The notes: generated from the sequence alone by a model not told the origin. DNA of 63,144 bases, filler included, from Circinaria calcarea (GCA_051942165.1; 6 parts of 6 records of this genome joined end to end with filler, not necessarily neighbours in it); one strand, 5' to 3'. Shown: positions 10,460 to 52,721, counted from the whole stretch's first letter. A program made the numbers and translations.

Positions 10460-10559
10460 NNNNNNNNNNNNNNNNNNNNNNNNNNNNNNNNNNNNNNNNN
10501 NNNTTAATTAATTAANNNNNNNNNNNNNNNNNNNNNNNNNNNNNNNNNNNNNNNNNNNN
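10460..10559. other. Artificial contig spacer N44-TTAATTAATTAA-N44
   Basis: Six-frame-stop linker, identical at all five gaps. Confidence 0.98.
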
Positions 10560-19621: not shown

Positions 19622-21016
19622 ATGCCTTTCGCGACATCAGCTCCCAAGTCGGATGCTCGACTGTTGCTCGTCTCCAACCGACTTCCTATTACCATCAAGC
19701 GCTCCGAGGATGGCAGCTATGATTTCTCCATGTCGTCCGGTGGCTTGGTCAGCGGCCTAAGTGGGCTTTCGAAGTCGACCACCTTCCAATGGTATGGCTG
19801 GCCGGGCTTAGAGGTTCCGGAGAAAGAGGCGGGCCCTCTAACGGAAAGACTAAAAGATGAATACAACGCGGTACCTGTCTTTATTGATGATGAGCTCGCA
19901 GATCGACATTACAATGGTTTCTCAAGTACGTTGTCGCGCGTCGATAACGAAGCCCTCACCACTAATATTTGTTGGGTGTTAGATTCCATCCTCTGGCCTT
20001 TATTCCACTACCATCCAGGTGAGATCACCTTCGATGAATCGGCTTGGAACGCGTACAAGGAAGCCAATCGTCTCTTTGCGAAAGCAATCGCAAGTGAAGT
20101 TCAAGATGGCGACCTGGTCTGGGTTCATGATTACCACCTCATGCTCCTTCCGGCTATGCTACGGGAAGAGATTGGTGCAAGCAAAACCAACGTAAAGATC
20201 GGATTCTTCCTACATACCCCTTTTCCTAGCAGCGAAATATACCGAATCTTACCGGTCCGAAACGAGATCCTTCTTGGCGTGCTACATTGTGACTTGATCG
20301 GTTTCCACACGTACGATTATGCCAGACACTTTCTCAGTAGCTGTTCGAGAATTCTGTGAGTGATAGAAGATTCTTGATGTGGTGAGAGAGTCGGCTTACA
20401 AACTTCAGTGGCTTATCGACTACGCCGAATGGCGTTGAGTTCCAAGGCAAGATTGTCAGCATTGGCGCCTTTCCGATTGGCATCGACCCGGACAAATTTA
20501 CCGAAGGTTTGAAGAAGCCCAAGGTACAAGAGCGTATCGCAACTTTAGAGCGGAAGTTTCAAGGCGTCAAACTCATAGTTGGTGTCGACCGCCTCGACTA
20601 CATCAAGGGTGTTCCGCAGAAGTTACATGCACTGGAGGTCTTTCTGACGGAGCATCCAGAATGGGTCGGAAAAGTGGTATTGGTTCAAGTAGCTGTGCCG
20701 AGTCGTCAGGATGTGGAGGAGTACCAGAATTTACGCGCCGTAGTCAACGAGCTTGTTGGAAGGATTAATGGCAAATTTGGTATTCTCTACAACCTCAATG
20801 TTTTGTTGCCTGGTGCACATTCAGCTAATCCCGCATAGGTACAATTGAATTCATGCCCATTCACTTTATGCACAAGTCTGTCAACTTCGATGAACTTATT
20901 GCCTTGTATGCAGTCTCTGATGTCTGCCTGGTCTCCTCCACCCGAGATGGGATGAATCTCGTTTCCTACGAATACATCGCCACTCAACGGAAACGGCATG
21001 GGGTCATGGTTTTATC
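19622..21016 (+). CDS. TPS1: Trehalose-6-phosphate synthase (GT20), 3' end cut by the contig end
   Basis: RLLLVSNRLP, SSGGLVSGL, WVHDYHL, GFFLHTPFP, GVDRLDYIKG, RDGMNLVSYEY. Three introns visible. Confidence 0.97.
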
Positions 21017-21116
21017 NNNNNNNNNNNNNNNNNNNNNNNNNNNNNNNNNNNNNNNNNNNNTTAATTAATTAANNNNNNNNNNNNNNNNNNNNNNNNNNNN
21101 NNNNNNNNNNNNNNNN
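21017..21116. other. Artificial contig spacer
   Basis: N44-TTAATTAATTAA-N44. Confidence 0.98.
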
Positions 21117-21922
21117 GAAAGGGGGTGGGAAGGAGGTTGTTGGTCGGCAACGGGAGAGAAGAGAGATGAGAGATCAGAGGCTAGGAAGACATGAGAAATC
21201 CCCCAGGAAAAAGGGAAGGAAAGGGAAGGAAGGGGGGGGGGAACTGGAAGGGAAACGGGGTCTGGGAAATGAAAAAGGGCGTGGGGAATTGTCAATGCCC
21301 AATTCCCAATTCCCAAACTTCCCCCCCCCCCCAATTTCCTTTCTTAAAAGGCAGGAGGAGATGTCAGCAGTCAGAGGTGTAGCTTTTTTAACAATGCTAG
21401 CAGATGGAGAAATGAAGGGGGATTAGAAGGAGCTTCTTCTTCGCGAGCAGCCTGGCCTGGCAGGGGAATGGTAGGTTCGTACGGTATCCCCCTCCATGGC
21501 GGTAGAATAAAGAAAAGGTGGGTTGGATCGAGGTTCTGTGGAGGTCCCATCTCAGCTGAGGGGAAGGTGGTGAGTAGAGAGAAAAGGAAGGGGGTGGTAG
21601 GGAGTAGGGACGGGGAAGGAGAGTAGGGATGGGTTTACTTGTGGAGGATGGGAGTGGCGATGGGATTCGATCGGGGGTATAGGGAGAGATGGGGCGAGTG
21701 GAAGCTAAAGTGACACGCCAGAGTATATGGGAGAAAATTTCCAAAGGTCATGGGAGCAGGCTTTAGTGTTCAAAGTAGTTGGTGCGAAGCTTCGATTTGT
21801 CAACAAAGCTATCCGTCTAGCTGCTTGCTATCCCAGGTCTCCCGCTCTCGCTCCCGCTCTTGCAAATTCATATGCCAGAGAGTCTTTAAAGACCATCTCA
21901 GAGGCAGGCTCCTTTCGATCAT

Positions 21923-22539
21923 CTACGGTCCTGTGAATCCAGGACAAGTCTGCTTGCCACACGGAGTGGGATACACCTAGTACTTCTCAGTATTGCTCAT
22001 CTCCACGTATGCCCTCGCGTCTTGGAGGGAAATGCATGAGGATTAATATCAACTTACTACTTCGCGAGGCTTGGGATGGAGTTCATAGTATGCTGCTTCG
22101 GTAGGTTCGACAGTTACGATATCCTGAGTGAGAGAAGACTGGAGTTAGTAAGTTGGCAACGCAGAACGGTGTAGGGTAGCTATGGGAGAGAACTAACTCG
22201 GTCTTTGAGCTGATCGAAGGAGGAAACGAGATCCGGGAGATTATCACGCTTTTCAAAAAGCCACTCGCAGGCTGTCGTGATCGATGGCGGGTCGCAGGGA
22301 CGTAAACGCATTGTGAGATCGTTGCGTTCCGCAATGGGCCATACGCAGCCTCTCACGAGTTCTGGCGGGTGGCAGTAACGTCTACGCCTGGTCAGGTCTT
22401 GGGAGACATCGGCTAATTCTGTCTCTTCTTGTCAGTGGTGATAAGTATTAGCCGCATAGATGAAGTGACCTGAGATTGGAACTGCGATGATGAGAGTCGC
22501 CAAGAGAGCTACGATGTTGAGGAGATGCTGGTAATGCAT
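21923..22539 (-). CDS. Small secreted Cys-containing repeat precursor (136 aa, 4 exons), candidate Kex2-processed peptide precursor
   Basis: Exons 22539-22470, 22418-22198, 22123-22058 and 21976-21923 splice in frame: MHYQHLLNIVALLATLIIAVPISELADVSQDLTRRRRYCHPPELVRGCVWPIAERNDLTMRLRPCDPPSITTACEWLFEKRDNLPD...PTPCGKQTCPGFTGP*. AAAATG start context and upstream TATA box. Confidence 0.72.
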
Positions 22540-22630
22540 TTTTGAGTCGATGGTTGTTGGCAGGCTTGAAAGTCAGATTGAGAAAGTGGTAGGATGAGAG
22601 TAGTGAAGTTGGGAAGGGGTAGTATTGCTC

Positions 22631-22638
22631 TTTATATA
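22631..22638 (-). promoter_or_regulatory. TATA box of the secreted peptide-precursor gene
   Basis: TATATAAA on the minus strand about 92 nt upstream of ATG 22539, followed by a C/T-rich leader. Confidence 0.6.
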
Positions 22639-24028
22639 GACGTGGGATGGACAAAGTGAATGATGTAGCTTTCAACCGCAGCCGTGTGGAATCTTTTGCC
22701 GATAGCACCTGTATCTAACCGGGTAAATGACGCTGATCTAGGGAAGTGATACGCCAGAATAGGGATGACACAGACTACTGTTGCTGATCCTGTGGCTGGA
22801 GAAATGCCCACTTACCACACGTGCCAGTCCCGGAAGAAATTCCCTCGAGGATCAACTGATACTCGGCAAATAAGCGTTAAACATGCATTGGCGAGCTGTC
22901 CTGGAGGGCCCGGTCGCTGTCAGGGCTGAGTGTTTTACGTTGACGGTCTCAAGCAGTCCCGCATGCTCTGCCACCGAAACGAGACCTGTCAAGCTTACGA
23001 CATGCCTTAGAGGCACGGCGAGAAGGAGGAGAAGTCCTCTCATGGAGGTGAACGGGATACCACTAGCACCCTTTATCTAAACCATAGCCAGTGGTCTTTC
23101 AATCTCCAACGGGTGGTCATTGTTCTTACGATTAGTACCTTCCGCGAGACATCATGATTGTTCAGAGCTAAGGATACGAACGTAACCTAAGCAGATACAG
23201 GAACCAAGGGTTCAGAGAGAAAGACGAGAGAAAGCTTCCGGAGGGGATGGTTTATGAGAGAATAAGCCCTAGCTTGACTTCTGCATTTGGCCTTTGGTTT
23301 GCTAGTAATCGAGTGTATGATATAATGGTTCTAGGTCCCTACCAACGCAGGCTCTGCCGTCTGATATGCGACTCAGATGAACATCGATCTATGGAGAGGT
23401 AATTAGGACGAAGAGGTCCATGTAAGATGATGGAGGATAAACGACCGGCCATGCTCAATCTGCCAGCATATGCTCCATCGTCTTGCATGTAGCTAGATCT
23501 GACACGGCGTAGGACAGTTCTCTAGCAACAACTTCTGATGGAACCGATAGAGGAGTGAGCCAACGAGCAGATGAGTTTTTTCAACCTTGTTCACCGGTGA
23601 GTTGCATGAGTGTTTAATCGTGTGAACAAGTCTGCAAGGCAAGCCTGCCACCTCCCTTGTAATTAAACGCATAATGAATAAATGCAGTAACAGGAATCTA
23701 CCTCTGTGCTGGGGATGTTGGGGGAGTGAGAGAAGTGCTGTGGTAGGGGATAGAGACTCCACTGTGGCCTCCTTTTACAGTCAAGGGGACGCTCGAGAGC
23801 TGCGCCAAGGTATTGGCCGAACTGACAGTAGCTACGGTTGCCGAGTTGTAGCCAATTATGAGTCGTCTCCTGTGCCCACTTTGATGTCCGAAATTCAATC
23901 GTGAGAGACACCAGATACAGTACATTGTGATCCTAATCGACCAGAAAATTGCAACGCCTCGGAGATAGACCGAGTACTGGTGTACTCCATTCCTAGCCCC
24001 ACGATCCTTCACTGGCAAATAAATCAAG

Positions 24029-25376
24029 ATGCCTCTGCGAATACGCAAATCACATCTCTCCACCCCCAACTGCGCCCCAACTACACCTTCGTCACGGCCG
24101 TGTCAATGCATCAAGAATTCATCTTCCAGACTCTTCTCTTCGACGCCTCAAAATGAAACCCGCCAAAGACGGTCCATGTTCCGATGGTTACGAGGTCCAG
24201 GGGCAGTTTTCAAAGACCCGCTTCCCGGCTCGACGAATTACCTAAACGCGTACGATGCCAACGGACGTCTGTTCCGTGCAGCCGGTAGTAATAGAAAAGA
24301 CGAAGGCAAAGATGCAGAGAACAGGCAGTCGACTCTACCCGGCGAGGAGGGCATGGAAGGGGAGGACAAGAAGAATTTTGCCAGTGGACAACCCATTCCC
24401 AGGGAGAGACCCGACGACCTAATGCCGTTCCCTTTGAACAGGCAATTCAGGAGTCAGCCGGTATTGAGTGAAGAGCTAAGGGAAGAAATCTGGCACAGGT
24501 CTGTTAAGGTGGGGGAGAGTGTGAAGGTCATAAGTGCGAATCTAGGGATAGAGATGGCAAGGGTAGGCGCGGCTGTGAGGCTGAAAACTGTAGAAAAGGA
24601 TTGGATACAGCAGGTAGGTTCAGACAAGTCCTTATTCGACATGAATGGCATGACAAGTATTGCATGATGAGAAACCATAAATCGATTAGTCTTGAAGACT
24701 TCCACCATGGTTACTAAATTACAAATTACAACTCTCTGATCCACACCGCTCGCTTCCTTAGATTTTCCAAGCTCAGTCTTGTTCACATGAGACTCTCCGT
24801 TCCCTGCTAATCAGGCATCTTTAGGGGAAACCGCTTGCCAGTCCCTATGCCCGCGCCATCCTCGCCATGCTCCCCACTACTCCATACCATGGGGGTCGCG
24901 CTGAATCAAAGGCCCACGAACCCATCAACGACTTGCCAGTACATCGCGATACCCTCCCCCAAATCTTTCACCCTGTCTCGGAGTCCCGACACTTCACCCG
25001 TGCCGACGCAGGCCAAGTTTTCCGTCCTGGCCTTCTCCCGGCTGACGCTCGGATCCCTCACCCCGAGCTGGTCGAATTGCAGAGGGAACGTCTCCGGGGC
25101 GTAGTCCGGGACGAGCGGGTGAATGCATTGCGGGAAAAGAATAGGCTCGAGTCGCTGCAGAAAGCGGAGAGGGAGAAGGCTAAAAGGGAAAAGGAGGAAC
25201 GAGCAACAACAAAGGTGGTACCCGAGAGTGGCAGGTGGGAATTTAGATTCAAAGATATCAGTGTGGAGGATGTTGGGCACACTGGGAGAGATAGGAGGGG
25301 CGTTGGGGCGAGGTATGGGTTTCCGCATGAAGATAGAAAGAGGGGGCAGATTAAAATTCCGAGGAGGGTGGAGTAG
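24029..25376 (+). CDS. MRPS35: Mitochondrial small-subunit ribosomal protein mS45 (Bot1p/MRPS35)
   Basis: Presequence, PLPGSTNYL, PFPLNRQFRSQPVLSEELRE, FHPVSESRHFTRADA, VGARYGFPHEDRKRGQIKIP. Intron 24614-24824. Confidence 0.9.
24660..24743 (+). ncRNA. Intronic box C/D snoRNA with two LSU rRNA antisense elements
   Basis: Box C ATGATGA 24664-24670; guide TCGATTAGTC plus D' TTGA 24682-24695; guide TACAAATTACAACTC 24720-24734; box D CTGA 24736-24739. Lies in an unusually long 211-nt intron. Confidence 0.82.
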
Positions 25377-27799
25377 AGCCACACCTCGACTAGTTGTGTA
25401 CGAGATGTATATAGGACTGTACAAGAGCTATGGGCCTAATTCTGCTATAAAGATGGCGGATTATCTCCTTGACCAAGGTGACGGTGAAAACCTCTTTTCC
25501 TGCAGATATGACCGATCTATGGTCTGGAGAGGCGTGAATGAGGTGGTGTGACAGGATGGGAGAAATCTCAGACCGGAAGGACGTGTATCATGATGCACTA
25601 CGGTCCAGTTTCAAGACTCTAGACCTTCGATAAACCAATCATCTCAACCTTGCTTCTCTCTTGTGGGTGCAGCTTCGTGAGAATGCGCAACCTTTTGTGT
25701 ACTTGCTTTTCTCGGCAAGAGACCTTGAACTTTACTTGTGGCCATCAGCTCTGCTAAACCTGATCTCTGATGCCCTCCAGAGTGAGCACATTTACGCCAC
25801 GGATCTCTGCTCCTCCTTCTCCTTCTGAAACGCCGGGATCTCAAGCAAACCTCTCCTTCTCTAGTTTCTGACTGCCTCTCTTCTTCCCATCTACATGAAC
25901 CTGGGCCATTGGACGGCCTCTAGCTTACCACCACAACCGCTAATTTACCGGGAATAGGAACCGGAACTGAGACCTAGTCCATAGTCTAAGAGTGTTGTAT
26001 CCCGGTGATGTACTTGGGAATTTCACCCGTGGGAGCTCGAAGAAGCATGCCAAGTATTCGAAAGGTTTCCAGCCAGGTCTAAATACTCTAGACGTGTACG
26101 GAGTAAAGGATTTGCCCGTTCCAAGCCCACAATTCCAATCGACTGGCCCGGAGGGTTTGAGCGAGATGGAAAGGCCGGAAAGATTTCGTGCTGGGAGGAG
26201 AGGATGGTGGGAAAAAGAGAGGTGGTGCGAGAATTACTAGAAAGGGCACTGAAGTAGTTTAGTAGAGTTGATTCGAGTCGATAGGTCATCCACGCTAGAA
26301 TAACCAGTACGGAATAGGGACACGTCCTCAACGTAGAACAGCCTTCGAGATTTCTAATCCGGATCCAATCTGCTAGGCTAACCTAATGTAATGCACAATC
26401 TCAGTATACGCAACTCCCCATGTCACCCTACCCACGCCATTGCAAACAACGCCGTGTTCCCTCAGCTCACGATCCCTTTGGCGGAAATTCCAGATCTGGA
26501 AACCACCATGAATAAGCTGACCATATTTTTCGAATTCAATGTATTCGGATAAACGCAAACCAACCAGTCCTACTCATCACCAACATGCCGGAATAAACGG
26601 TGAAATTAAAAAAGAAGCTGGAGTAGAAAACCCATCCATGGTCGTTTTGGAATGGATGGACGCTAGTAGAGTTGGCATAAAGCAGCGCAATCGCAATCGC
26701 GGCAGAGCCATAGTTGCTATACGTTCGTGACAACCTGACCCCGAACTCGAAAGCTGCTAGTTCTCCCTTGAGACTATTGTTCATTTTCCATGCTGCCGAT
26801 GAACTCCGTACCCGGGGTAACCCCTTGCAAAAAACATCTCTTTGCGATTTTCTTCCACGTTGGATGTCCCTACATTCCTTTGCGGTTTCTTTGGTCATAT
26901 ATCATTGGGGAAAAGGACTCTTTATTGGGCTCCGATACTATTCTGAAAGGACGACTTCCTTCTCCCAAATCACCCTATTTCGAACCTTGGTATCCAAGTC
27001 GTTTAAGCCGCCGAAACGACGATAATCTTTATTTAGACTGAATATAAGCCGACGGATAAATCGTAAATTAAAGGGGAACCGCGGCAAGGCCCTTCCTTTT
27101 CACTCGTCGAAGTATTTTGCCGTAATCCACCAAAGCCTCTGTAAGATATAGCTGAAACGGTCTGAGTCTCGGACTGGCGATAACGATGGTATCTTTCGAC
27201 TACGATTGGCTATACCATAGCCCCTAACTCCAAGCCAAAGAACCAGGCTCGTTAACGCTGCCAGTTTCCGTCGATCTCCTGGATAGCCCAGTTGAATCGT
27301 TAAATAAATCGACCGGGGAATAATCTCTTCAACGGGATACCATAATGCCTTGCAAATGCAATAACCACACCCGGATTAATATTATATTATCAGTATATAA
27401 CTGGGAAAAAAAGGATGAAAACATTAATTATAAATTTAATAAATCTATTTATTATATATAGAGAATTAAGGCAGTGTGAAGGAAATAGGGTGCTCCGTCG
27501 TGCCCCTAAGGTATAGGCAAAGACGCTGTCGAGAATGGATAGGGAGGCCCTAAATGGCGAGAAGTAAAGGGTATATGGCATGAACTGACTGCTATAGTAT
27601 AATGCGCATATAGAAATCGTGTTACTGCTGAATTTAAGTCTGTTATTCATGGACTGTCTGTTCTGCTGAAGTGTGTGTATGCTTGAATATCAAAATCCTC
27701 CCCGAACCCTTTTATGTATGCGCCAAAAGCAAAATCTAAGTTACCTGTCAGTCTAACCATATTCTGTCTCCACCACAGACCTCCCCTCCTGAAGTTGTG

Positions 27800-28830
27800 T
27801 CCTTTATAACTTCTTTTTCCTCCTCCTCAATAGTGATCGGCTGGTGATGGTTCCTCTGAGAATGCCCTGGTAATAGTGCTGGAAACTAACCCTTTTTTTA
27901 ATCAATTCCACTGGATCCGGATCATCTGCTCTCGATGCAGGCTGCCGTTTCTCTTTTAAATAGAATAAGTTCTTCTCCTGAAACATATACCGCTCAGTCG
28001 TCTCTATTAATTCTATATATTTTCGAATTTCCACCCTGGCACGGCGTTCTTAGTCCTCGATATTTCTGTCTTGCCACGCTGTCCCCACCCAGTGTATAAT
28101 ATATGTTATTGATTACTACTGGATTCGTCCAACGCACCCGTCCTATTAGTGTATCTGAGATTGCACCTAGTCCTGTGATAGGCACTGCCGTGGGGAAGGC
28201 GTACGGTGGTGCGCCAAATCTGTTAACCAGGCCAGACGGTGACTTCGGTCCCGGTAACAGGTCACGATGTGCGTTCGATAATTCTAACCCTAACCCTAAG
28301 TATAAAGGAAGGAAAGGGACATGTACAAGGGAAGGAAAGGGATATACATAAGACTTATGGAGGGTGATGGAGCCAAAAAGGCTCAGCATAGTAGAGATCT
28401 GTGCCAAAGAATAAAGATTAGTACCGACAGATGATTCTCGGAGCGCGATGTGTTGGCAAGCGCATCTGGGGATATCGCCTTTGCCATAATAACAGTATTG
28501 CTCTGAGCCATCTGGGCGTACCGGTGTATAACAAGATTGACGGCCTTAAGGTCGTTCACCCCGGCAGTAGACCTAACAGCCCTTAGGAATAATGAATTGA
28601 TGTGTTTTGCTTTCAGCCACAATCGGAGTAGTATTGGCGTAATGATCGATGCCATTTCACATTCTTGCATGCTCCAGCTTCCTAAGTGCCTCTTGGGAGA
28701 CTGTAATCGGCCCCACGATGGTGGGAAAAGGAAACGCCGGAGTTGGGCACAATGCTCGATCTCAGCCGCTGGCGTGAAGATTACTACCCGCACACAATGA
28801 TGTCTTCGGCACCCCTCCGTTATCAGAGTC
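27800..28830 (-). mobile_element. Degenerate DNA-transposon-like coding relic (tentative)
   Basis: Broken frames containing FPPSWGRLQSPKRHLGSWSMQE...SIITPILLRLWL, which I recall as resembling fungal transposase-associated ORFs. AT-rich, stop-riddled flanks; no termini found. Confidence 0.4.
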
Positions 28831-31060
28831 TTTACTATATTTGGCTGAGCGGGATATAGTCATTGACTGTTAGAATGCTACTAATTGTATAATAAAGGAG
28901 CAGCACATGCGCATTTCTCTCGAGATCATTGTACCTCTGGACGGTAACTTTTGCGTTTATCAAACGAGCTGGGGTTGTAGTAGCTGTAGAGTCCTCGACC
29001 GGAAGGCCAGTACCATCACTCGAAATACGGGGATTGGTTTCATGAGACTCCACAGGTGGCTCATTATGCTTCGGATGAACTGCCGTCTCCTTCTCGTGCA
29101 ATCGACCAGGTTTGCCAGGCTGTTTGTTATGGTTGTCACCCCTTGGCACCAGAGGCTCGCATACCAAAGGAGCTTGGTTGTACTCGTACCTAGACTTGGA
29201 CGTGGTAGTTAAGATAAGAGCTAAGAGTTGACGATTCGAGATGAATGTAATGGCTTTGGTTGATGGAAGTGAGCTTAACAAGCTTTGCCTTGATCTCAAT
29301 GCTCATTCATCCCTTGAGCCAACACCCGATAATTGACCTTGTGAACCCCACTCCTTGGCCTCCAGGAATCATATAAACCCAGAAAAACGCACAGAAAGAA
29401 CTGTAGCGTGGAGGTAAAGTTCAGCTGGACGAAACGTACGTAAAACATCTTGCAGCAAACGAAACTGAGTTTTCTAGATAACAATGATGGCAATGTTCTC
29501 TGATTGAGTACTAAGCCACGTGTGCGCTATTTACCACAAGATCCAGGTTCCACAATCGCCAAGTGTTTGTGCAATTGTAAAATGAAAGGTGCCATCTCTC
29601 TGATCTGGTACTCTTCCGATTGCATAGGTGTAGAATGTAAATGCCGTGTTGATCAGGAAAGGTGGGCGATGTACGGTAAAGTATCTTGAACGCCTTTTTT
29701 TAAATTGTCTCGTGTAGGACAATCGAAATTTCATAATAGAAGACAACAAATAAGATGCCTGGCATAACTGGAAGCTAATTATACATAAGATGTAGCTATC
29801 ACATAGACCTAGGGCTTACTGTCAACCGGGTTATGGTCAATGTCAATTTCAGAGTCACAATGTACCCTGATGGACACTTAAACTATATATCCAAACAACA
29901 ACAGAGTCTTAGCGGAGTAGGAATAGAGGCAGTATACCTGAGAAAGTAATTATATATAATATAGCTAAGGGCGTCTGATAGGAATGACGTTCGAGATCTT
30001 ATGCAAGAAATGTAAGTACAAATCCAAAAGTTGCTATATATAATTGTAATAAACGAGAGAACCTATTGTCGTTATTGCTTTATAGGTATTGGAGGACAAA
30101 CATCAGTGAATCAAGTCTTCACTCAAGGCCGAATTGAATAGCGATTTTACTTTAGCGATGAATGAAGCATATGCAAAGATAGTGGAGATGCTAGTGGGTC
30201 TCATTTTAATTTTTGACCTTCCTCGAAGGACACAACCGTTGTTTGCGATTTTATTGAAATCGTGAGTTACAGCTCTCCTCCGTTTCACAAAGCGATGACA
30301 AGCAGAATGATGCCACGGTAGAAGATACTGAGCGGATAAAACCAGCTGAAAGAGGCGGTAAGACCTCCGGATTGGTGGAGAACCTTCTTATCAAAAGCAT
30401 GAGGCACACAGTAGATATATGGAAGATGTTAGACTGATTGATGGTGGAGATGTGTCCGAGTTTCATCGGCTAGGCCACTAGTTACTAAAGTGGAGCTAGC
30501 TCCGCTAGTTTGAAGCACAATTTTGCCATCATAACTGCATACATAGCAGATTGCATTAATACGAACTCGACATCTCAAGATGGGGGTCAGATAGAGCGCC
30601 GCTACATGATACGATGCGCGTGCACTGGTCATTAATTAACGTTCCTGTCACACGGATAACTTTATCTCGAGTAATGAATATCAAGGAAGAGAGAGATGCG
30701 AGTAGATGGACGAGTAGGTATTTGCTTAGCTGTCAAACTTCTCTCTACACAATCGTTGTGTTGATATCGAACAGACAGAAATTCCTCTTCCTGATAGATA
30801 GAGGGGACATAAGCAGGTAGATATGATGTCAAGCAAATCATTTGTCAAAGATGCCTCCAACGCTAAGCGCAGCAACCCTTTTACTAAACAAATCGCTCAT
30901 AACCACCTAGAGTATACCTTGCGTAGCAGAATCCAAAGAGACCAGAGCCAAGGTCACCATTTTATACAGAAAGTCTCAAATGGCACGGTCAGGTAGCAAT
31001 CGACACGAAGTAAAGCATGTGTAAATAGGATAGCCGGCCTTTTCATATAATATGGCAAAA

Positions 31061-31562
31061 CTAAGCATACCATCCCGTTGCGCTAACCTGAGCCCCTTGG
31101 TCTGATTGACGGTGAGGGATGATGCAGTTGTCAATTTCGTATGCCTGTACAATATCTTCCCAGGTGGGAAAATCAAGATGGAAGACGGCTTGATGCTTCG
31201 AGACGCCTTTTTCTCTAATCTCGTTATTATCTCGAGGTTGCCTGATATCTGCAGTGAAATGTCGTTAGTATTGTACGGTAGCCACATGGAGAACACAAGA
31301 CTAACGCAAGGTTGGGAGGCCACGACTGTCTTGACCAAAACCCACGTAGCCATCCCTTATAAGGAAGCTGACATAGAAAAGGTTTTCTACCGTTTGGCCA
31401 AAGGATCTTGGGTTGATAACAACATGGAAGAATGGAAGGCCAGTGTCGTCCGCAACATGGTTTTTGGTCATGACCGCCTGAACTTCTGCATCCGACATAT
31501 CGTCCGTAGCTTCTTGTCCTACCTTCTCCATTCCCTCGTATTGCACCACTTTGAGTTGACCA
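31061..31562 (-). CDS. NSE4: Smc5/6 complex kleisin Nse4, 3' fragment
   Basis: [24 protein letters not shown]...GLPTL|...[22 protein letters not shown]...IIPHR; stop at 31061-31063. Confidence 0.9.
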
Positions 31563-31662
31563 NNNNNNNNNNNNNNNNNNNNNNNNNNNNNNNNNNNNNN
31601 NNNNNNTTAATTAATTAANNNNNNNNNNNNNNNNNNNNNNNNNNNNNNNNNNNNNNNNNNNN
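31563..31662. other. Artificial contig spacer
   Basis: N44-TTAATTAATTAA-N44. Confidence 0.98.
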
Positions 31663-42092: not shown

Positions 42093-42192
42093 NNNNNNNN
42101 NNNNNNNNNNNNNNNNNNNNNNNNNNNNNNNNNNNNTTAATTAATTAANNNNNNNNNNNNNNNNNNNNNNNNNNNNNNNNNNNNNNNNNNNN
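42093..42192. other. Artificial contig spacer
   Basis: N44-TTAATTAATTAA-N44. Confidence 0.98.
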
Positions 42193-52621: not shown

Positions 52622-52721
52622 NNNNNNNNNNNNNNNNNNNNNNNNNNNNNNNNNNNNNNNNNNNNTTAATTAATTAANNNNNNNNNNNNNNNNNNNNNNN
52701 NNNNNNNNNNNNNNNNNNNNN
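52622..52721. other. Artificial contig spacer
   Basis: N44-TTAATTAATTAA-N44. Confidence 0.98.

Follow-up and report, generated by a model that had tools for sequence, protein, structure and literature searches.

The closest described systems to the locus reported here are the Kex2-processed repeat proteins (KEPs), the α-type mating-pheromone precursors, the K2PP effectors and the fungal RiPPs. KEPs, surveyed among others by Le Marquer et al. (2019, PMC6339444), are defined by at least three tandem repeats of at least 8 aa, lying between KR, RR, KK (or RK) sites (PMC6339444, PMC7329392), and most KEP types are unique at approximately the genus level (Umemura 2020, PMC7329392). For α-factor precursors the criteria are a mature peptide of 9–14 aa that is repeated and followed by KEX sites, XA/XP dipeptides preceding it as STE13 sites, and a turn formed by GQ or PG (PMC10569646). 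In K2PP effectors such as SnTox3 and SIX1/4/6, an acidic disordered pro-region that ends in LxxR or RR follows the signal peptide, and the Cys-containing mature part behind it is a single folded domain (PMC8528282). Few characterised fungal RiPPs are disulfide-bridged; one case is acalitide, whose precursor AcaA has one core of 30 aa, cyclised head-to-tail by the dedicated peptidase AcaB, and shows neither repeats nor kexin logic (PMC10840396).

The locus lies on the minus strand of the window, by which we mean the whole 63,144-nucleotide stretch of DNA that was analysed, and it probably holds a real, small, unannotated gene, whose exon structure is a model read from the DNA. The predicted product resembles KEPs in its signal-like N-terminus, tandem short units, acidic spacers and Arg-ended sites (PMC6339444, PMC7329392), and likewise in a unit number that varies between relatives and in a very narrow phyletic distribution. 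It falls outside the formal KEP definition, since it has two units and only two of the four unit boundaries are KR or RR; the remaining boundaries, unlike those of KEPs, are LxxR-type or ER. The original prediction had set it beside the Kex2-processed repeat proteins, and although it is not a KEP in the strict sense, an LxxR-type kexin motif precedes all four complete units known. With K2PP effectors it shares an acidic disordered pro-region, ...ETELADVSQDLTRRRR, which stands directly after the signal-like exon, ends in LxxR or RR and is followed by a Cys-containing part, and the predicted protein carries a KR, RR or LxxR motif in its first half, the criterion for a K2PP pro-domain; it differs in presenting tandem peptide units instead of a single folded domain (PMC8528282). 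Like acalitide, its product would be a ribosomal fungal peptide with disulfides, which are predicted here (PMC10840396). Full-text literature yielded no described family with a C-x-PP-x5-C-x-W unit, the motif string not having been sought in main texts, and six four-letter sub-motifs of the unit had no occurrence in the available supplement text of PMC6339444 and PMC7329392, which may omit sequences.

Our preferred reading, held tentatively and with a little less than even confidence, is that of a lineage-restricted, kexin-processed secreted peptide precursor, encoded by an unannotated gene of a filamentous ascomycete-like genome. In the preferred model, 3 or 4 exons would encode a pre-pro-protein of approximately 124–139 aa. 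Its transcription, splicing, secretion, cleavage and disulfides, as well as any extracellular role as signal, antimicrobial or effector, are what we infer for this product.

The gene model extends from about 22539 to 21923, all features given below being on the minus strand, and its four-exon version encodes 139 aa with six Cys. A TATA-like box, TATATAAA, is located at 22631–22638, 92 nt upstream of the start codon at 22539. This sequence occurs as a single copy in the window with both strands counted, and since 1.79 copies would be expected somewhere in it, the argument lies in the position of the box and not in its count. The ATG at 22537–22539, in the context caaaATGc, is the first one downstream of the box. 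Exon 1 (22470–22539) encodes MHYQHLLNIVALLATLIIAVPIS and the first base of a Glu codon; the segment consists of an n-region (MHYQH), an h-region of about 15 residues and a c-region with small residues, and its 9-residue Kyte–Doolittle mean rises to 3.06. The conserved frame has the TATA box, the first ATG and the hydrophobic N-terminus immediately upstream of it, in a phase that is compatible. Exon 2 (22198–22427) comprises an acidic pro-region and two Cys-loop units, besides an acidic spacer that ends in QLKDR, and reads ETELADVSQ-DLTRRRRYCHPPELVRGCVWPIAER-N-DLTMRLRPCDPPSITTACEWLFEKR-DNLPDLVSSFDQLKDR. Exon 3 (22058–22123) reads DIVTVEPTEAAYYELHPKPREV, and exon 4 (21923–21976) encodes VYPTPCGKQTCPGFTGP with a third Cys pair before the stop codon. 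The original prediction proved accurate in this respect, as its TATA box, signal-like N-terminus, GT..AG introns and four-exon layout were all recovered at these positions.

Exon 2 is embedded in an 83-codon stop-to-stop frame (22183–22431), in which no in-frame ATG occurs before codon 41. Because unit 1, encoded ahead of that point, is kept in the homologous protein P0001 described below, yet the frame offers no start before codon 41, an upstream exon is required; for the same reason, and because the frame has a TGA upstream of it, an intron has to precede exon 2. The 42-nt intron 1 (22428–22469) has the donor CAG|GTCACT, a CTAAT branch-like site and an AAG acceptor. No other GT between the signal-like exon and the frame of exon 2 has the right phase, and an alternative acceptor at 22419, 9 nt further on and also in frame, would give an intron of 51 nt. 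Intron 2 (22124–22197, 74 nt) has textbook signals (GTTAGT...TACTAAC...CAG), and intron 3 (21977–22057, 81 nt) runs from GTAAGT to TAG without a clear CTRAY branch site near the acceptor. If intron 1 were retained, translation would reach a TGA after 35 codons, an early stop that had been foreseen. Retention of intron 2 would give a read-through that stops after 5 codons, with the protein ending in ...KDRVSSLP, and retention of intron 3 would produce the end ...PREVVS.

Intron 1, which is also short at 42 nt, is the weakest splice site of the model, and intron 1 and exon 4 are its weakest parts. The donor consensus is CAG|GTAAGT; on the exon side intron 1 conforms to it (CAG|) and seven of the nine positions match, and on the intron side GTCACT deviates from GTRAGT at +3 and +5, with C at both, so that the weakness ascribed to this donor by the original prediction is borne out. 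A local splice consensus was sought at six junctions of Pfam-supported genes of the window, where candidate introns of approximately 48–53 nt were found at five of the junctions, but too many alternative GT..AG pairs were available and none for Bot1p.

The coding signal of the exons was assessed by a codon-usage log-likelihood, for which Pfam-supported ORFs of the window supplied 4048 training codons. The training pieces gave 0.29±0.13 in the correct frame, compared with −0.30 and −0.33 in the other two. Per codon, exon 1 reached +0.35 in its model frame and −0.44 and −0.22 in the others, exon 3 likewise +0.35 (−0.20 and −0.54 in the others), and exon 2 +0.14, each value being the best of the three frames. 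The model frame is also the only stop-free one of the six across the exon-2 span. Exon 4 scored −0.11 over its 17 codons, and another of its three frames scored better. This negative score, with the lack of a clear branch site in intron 3, leaves exon 4 and its third Cys pair as the least supported elements; the pair, which the original prediction had included, is present in the reading of exon 4, but the intron and exon on which it depends have the least support.

The weak intron-1 donor and the poorly supported exon 4 favour another explanation, according to which this is a non-functional frame, either decaying or never expressed, whose signal and splice features are fortuitous and whose similarity to P0001 is due to common descent, be it as a dead gene or as non-coding DNA. 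Stretches of 70–90 open codons are plentiful in this DNA (9 kb contains 45 frames of 70 aa or more), which suits this explanation as well. Against it stand the positive codon usage of three of the four exons and the correct placement of the TATA box, the first ATG and the hydrophobic exon. Together with the conservation discussed below, these make a non-functional frame unlikely in our judgement.

The two Cys-loop units of exon 2 are copies of a 25-aa pattern, D-L-T-x-R-x-R-x-C-x-PP-x5-C-x-W-x3-[EK]-R. Unit 1 (22324–22398) reads DLTRRRR-Y-CHPPELVRGCVW-PIAER and unit 2 (22246–22320) reads DLTMRLR-P-CDPPSITTACEW-LFEKR; in a gapless alignment they are identical at 11 of 25 aa and 48 of 75 nt. The repeats DLT-RRRR and DLT-MRLR are therefore present in exon 2 as originally quoted, and the internal repeat reached a BLOSUM62 local score of 63, compared with 20.0±3.8 (maximum 35) in 1000 shuffles, none of which attained 63. 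A six-frame translation of the window contained the pattern C.PP.{4,6}C.W only in these two units, where 0.02 occurrences were expected (100 shuffles, maximum 1). Tandem Repeats Finder detected no DNA-level array inside the gene, and Rfam found no family in 21117–24000. When the 27 nucleotide differences between the units were placed at random, 9.3±1.7 identical aa were expected and 11 were observed (P = 0.24), no significant sign of purifying selection between the units, a result that speaks for a non-functional frame.

A HMMER scan with the 83-aa frame as query, carried out against 1.84 billion cluster representatives at E ≤ 0.001, returned two proteins, P0001 and P0002. P0001 (120 aa, E 6.8e-20) shows 53–57% aa identity to the exon-2 frame and is a true homologue and the sole one found. 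It is a singleton cluster derived from one 8.7-kb ENA metagenome contig, and the existence of one homologue, a singleton, is a further point in favour of a non-functional frame. The second protein, P0002 (890 aa, 14 matched stretches), was rejected: it is a near-perfect tandem array of ...KRKRYCFVPDTATVH..., an unrelated basic Cys-containing unit, which produced a spurious summed match. Other searches of the 83-aa frame and its pattern added no relatives. A word-index protein search with the frame alone gave no candidate, and a protein search with a profile of the frame and P0001 retained P0001 alone among 31 candidates. Among JGI metagenome loci there were 86 pattern matches, 0 of which were confirmed by tblastn. 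The best score in the ESM Atlas was 0.84, under the useful range; the PDB sequence search gave 0 matches at E ≤ 10, and Pfam found no family in the 83-aa frame.

The start of P0001 is truncated, the gene-caller's Met being located inside the tail of a unit (MWPIPERR). Behind this partial unit P0001 has two complete ones, DVANRPRPCNPPTLITGCEWPTKKR and DLEKRLRPCNPPTLIRGCEWPTEKR, so that it carries at least two complete units and a partial one as compared with the two units of the window's gene, and the suggested variation in repeat number was thereby observed. The tail of P0001, DDILDLESSIGQLKGR, matches DNLPDLVSSFDQLKDR of the window's gene. The similarity ends at R|VSS, which is the predicted intron-2 donor, and the read-through diverges after VSS. 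All gaps of the alignment are whole codons and the frame is open in both genomes. The match covers exon 2 alone, and no homologue spans exon 3 or exon 4. Nine columns are the same in every one of the four complete units (D...R.R.C.PP.....C.W....R). The original prediction had set in advance, as its test, that a homologue should keep the Cys/Pro/Trp pattern and the basic sites, and all four units show them. Cross-species identities favour the columns that are common to both internal units (10/1 versus 6/10, Fisher P = 0.007), and a second cross-species table gave the same picture (9/2 versus 4/12, Fisher P = 0.005). The site-specific conservation of C, PP, C, W and the Arg sites, the level of aa identity with in-frame gaps and an open frame in both genomes, and the end of similarity at the predicted donor all argue against a frame without function.

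As for processing, the canonical dibasic sites RRRR (before unit 1) and KR (after unit 2) flank the pair of units, as the original prediction had it, but its wording that the repeats are bounded by basic sites does not extend to the inter-unit junction, which reads AER-N...MRLR and leaves two of the four unit boundaries of the window's gene dibasic. With P0001 included, D-[LV]-x-x-R-x-R precedes all four complete units, and [K/E]-R-[D/N] follows them, with KR in three cases and ER in one; the partial unit of P0001 ends in RR. The units of P0001 are each bounded by KKR or EKR and then DD. At three of the four N-flanks R-x-R is followed by Pro, and Pro after the cut site is unfavourable for kexin. 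For Kex2, Arg at P1 is near-invariant, P4 prefers Leu or another aliphatic residue, and P2 tolerates Arg, Thr, Pro and Glu as well as Ile (PMC8528282). Judged by these preferences, each of the eight unit boundaries can be counted at least as a candidate kexin site.

The hydrophobic N-terminus, the acidic spacers and the Arg-ended flanks fit a kexin-processed pro-protein, as far as it can be read from the predicted protein. In the proposed mechanism, the hydrophobic N-terminus would direct the protein into the ER, and a late-Golgi kexin (Kex2-type) would cut after Arg. Ahead of the units the candidate cuts would fall at RR sites and at the conserved motif D-[LV]-x-x-R, with its aliphatic P4 and Arg P1, and behind each unit at [K/E/R]-R-[D/N], after which a Kex1-type carboxypeptidase would remove the basic tail. 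The C-to-W core comprises 12 aa and about 18–20 aa lie between the candidate cleavage sites; the products would accordingly be peptides of approximately 18–20 residues of the form x-R-[P/Y]-C-x-P-P-x5-C-x-W-x3, one example being LRPC...CEW...E once Kex1 has trimmed it. A single C-x8-C disulfide would close each of them, and each would present a hypervariable loop on a fixed C/PP/C/W scaffold. In P0001, strict dibasic cleavage would free each unit separately. In the window's gene, where the inter-unit site has decayed to AER-N, strict KR/RR cleavage would release one four-Cys peptide of about 41 aa, so the product may be partly or wholly such a two-unit peptide. The separate disulfide-looped peptides of the original prediction are consequently compatible with the Arg-ended flanks and the acidic spacers, but not with strictly dibasic cutting.

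The same features can be read in another way, namely that a small secreted Cys protein is left whole, or at most, in the manner of K2PP effectors, is cut at DLTRRRR to remove an N-terminal pro-domain. What remains would be a folded mature protein of about 100 aa with 2–3 disulfides, and the two units would be structural repeats. The even number of Cys (six in the four-exon model, four in exon 2) is in line with this, as is the fact that only RRRR and KR are canonical here while the units are joined by AER-N/MRLR; effectors with a pro-domain ending in KR, RR or LxxR sites are common (PMC8528282). However, every unit of P0001 is individually bounded by its own KKR or EKR and DD, the acidic and poorly conserved spacers are typical of excised pro-spacers, and the number of units differs between the window's gene and P0001. 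Moreover, AlphaFold2 predicted no confident fold (pLDDT 46.6), which is weak evidence because the alignment contained only two sequences. We consider a protein that is not cut into peptides rather unlikely, if somewhat less so than the other alternatives.

Returning to the kexin-processed precursor, its likeness to mating pheromones had to be weighed. It resembles the Pezizomycotina ppg1/ccg-4/PpgA precursors in having secreted, kexin-processed short repeats (predicted here) that contain two Cys, with C-(x)-W at the C-terminus. A mating-pheromone precursor of the α-type, Kex2-processed and divergent in this lineage, would account for the signal-like N-terminus and for two-Cys repeats that end in G/A-C-x-W, which recall the WCxxxGQxCW and RCGARGQGCW types (PMC10569646, PMC6339444). 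Furthermore, α-factor genes with two repeats exist (PMC10569646), and the absence of a DUF3328 gene nearby is a feature of pheromone genes likewise (PMC7329392). None of the α-pheromone criteria given in PMC10569646 applies to the window's gene, however. About 18–20 aa separate the sites, compared with repeats of 9–14 aa (PMC10569646). The N-termini left by the candidate cuts would be RR/YC, LR/PC or PR/PC, with no X-A/X-P dipeptide run of the STE13 kind, and GQ or PG occurs in none of the four units. The Cys spacing is C-x8-C, as against C-x6-C in α-factor precursors, and the peptides are longer; the remark of the original prediction that the spacing departs from the pheromone consensus was correct. 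An α-type pheromone precursor is thus a very improbable identity for this gene.

Finally, the surroundings of the gene bear on whether it could encode an enzymatically modified RiPP precursor, ustiloxin/dikaritin-type or other, whose tailoring genes would be clustered around it. The predicted architecture, kexin-delimited repeats behind a signal sequence, is compatible with this, and 22% of KEP genes have DUF3328 neighbours (PMC7329392). The window consists of six pieces of about 10.4 kb, separated by spacers of 44 N, TTAATTAATTAA and again 44 N. The gene lies in the piece 21117–31562, at 0.8 kb from the start of the piece and with approximately 9 kb of contiguous sequence on its other side. 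A GT20/TPS1 gene that seemingly converges on it is not a neighbour, because it belongs to another piece, and the only family match in the gene's own 10.4-kb piece is Bot1p (mitochondrial regulator protein) at 24023–25376. Neither DUF3328/UstYa nor tyrosinase, methyltransferase, prolyl oligopeptidase or a pheromone family was present in 100 ORF translations across the window. No DUF3328 gene, expected near an ustiloxin-type precursor, thus lies in the contiguous view, which extends 0.8 kb to one side of the gene and 9 kb to the other, and Tyr, which dikaritin cross-links need in every core, adjoins the core in only one of the four units. Both findings make a modified RiPP extremely improbable.

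If the preferred reading of a kexin-processed precursor is correct, the C-x-PP-x5-C-x-W units might represent an undescribed class of kexin-released disulfide-looped signalling peptides from a fast-evolving precursor, a proposal to which we give a low probability; within it, one possibility is that they would act through a receptor of their own, as a non-canonical second pheromone or as a signal of the quorum type. Nothing here points to a new mechanism. The locus also illustrates how a short multi-exon gene escapes annotation: with no ATG ahead of codon 41 in its main exon, it would be overlooked by annotation that relies on ORFs. KEP-like genes are numerous, 7878 having been counted in 1461 genomes, and they are highly diverse and mostly lineage-specific (PMC7329392). 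The gene described here is a plausible addition to these very diverse, protease-cut fungal repeat peptides, and if it is expressed and processed, it would add a disulfide-looped peptide type to the repertoire of peptides that fungi release by kexin.

The window is a composite: its six pieces, each about 10.4 kb long, are joined by spacers consisting of 44 N, TTAATTAATTAA and a further 44 N, which occupy positions 10460–10559, 21017–21116, 31563–31662, 42093–42192, and 52622–52721. Two genes that flank a spacer in the window are therefore not adjacent in the genome by virtue of that position, and the GT20/TPS1 gene breaks off at window position 21016. On the candidate gene's own piece, a chain of adjacent frames of 99, 183, 158, 155, 76, and 94 aa was found on the minus strand at 27390–29815, and none of these frames matched Pfam. 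They probably constitute a single multi-exon gene of unknown family. Downstream of the stop codon of the candidate gene, the + strand at 21117–21860 is purine-rich, low-complexity DNA, in which microsatellite-like arrays (GAGAGAT, AAAGGGAAGG, CAATTCC, and CTCCCG) occur along with poly-G/poly-C runs.

The second protein matched in the HMMER scan with the 83-aa exon-2 frame of the candidate gene, P0002, is a predicted protein of 890 aa in which a unit of about 62 aa (...YTVFKRKRYCFVPDTATVH...) recurs roughly 14 times almost unchanged, apparently a satellite repeat in translation. P0002 was rejected as a relative of the query because the match rests only on the sum of weak stretches.

Among the matches to the TPS1 exon of the window was P0013, which is labelled “hypothetical protein, partial [Staphylococcus xylosus]”, is 139 aa long and comes from a 420-bp contig. 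It shows 84% identity to this fungal exon and probably represents fungal contamination within a bacterial assembly. Among the matches listed, P0004, P0005, P0007, and P0009–P0012 are ORF fragments with 92–98% identity to the exon, carried by ENA metagenome contigs (the largest being 124 kb), therefore public assemblies contain close relatives of this fungus.
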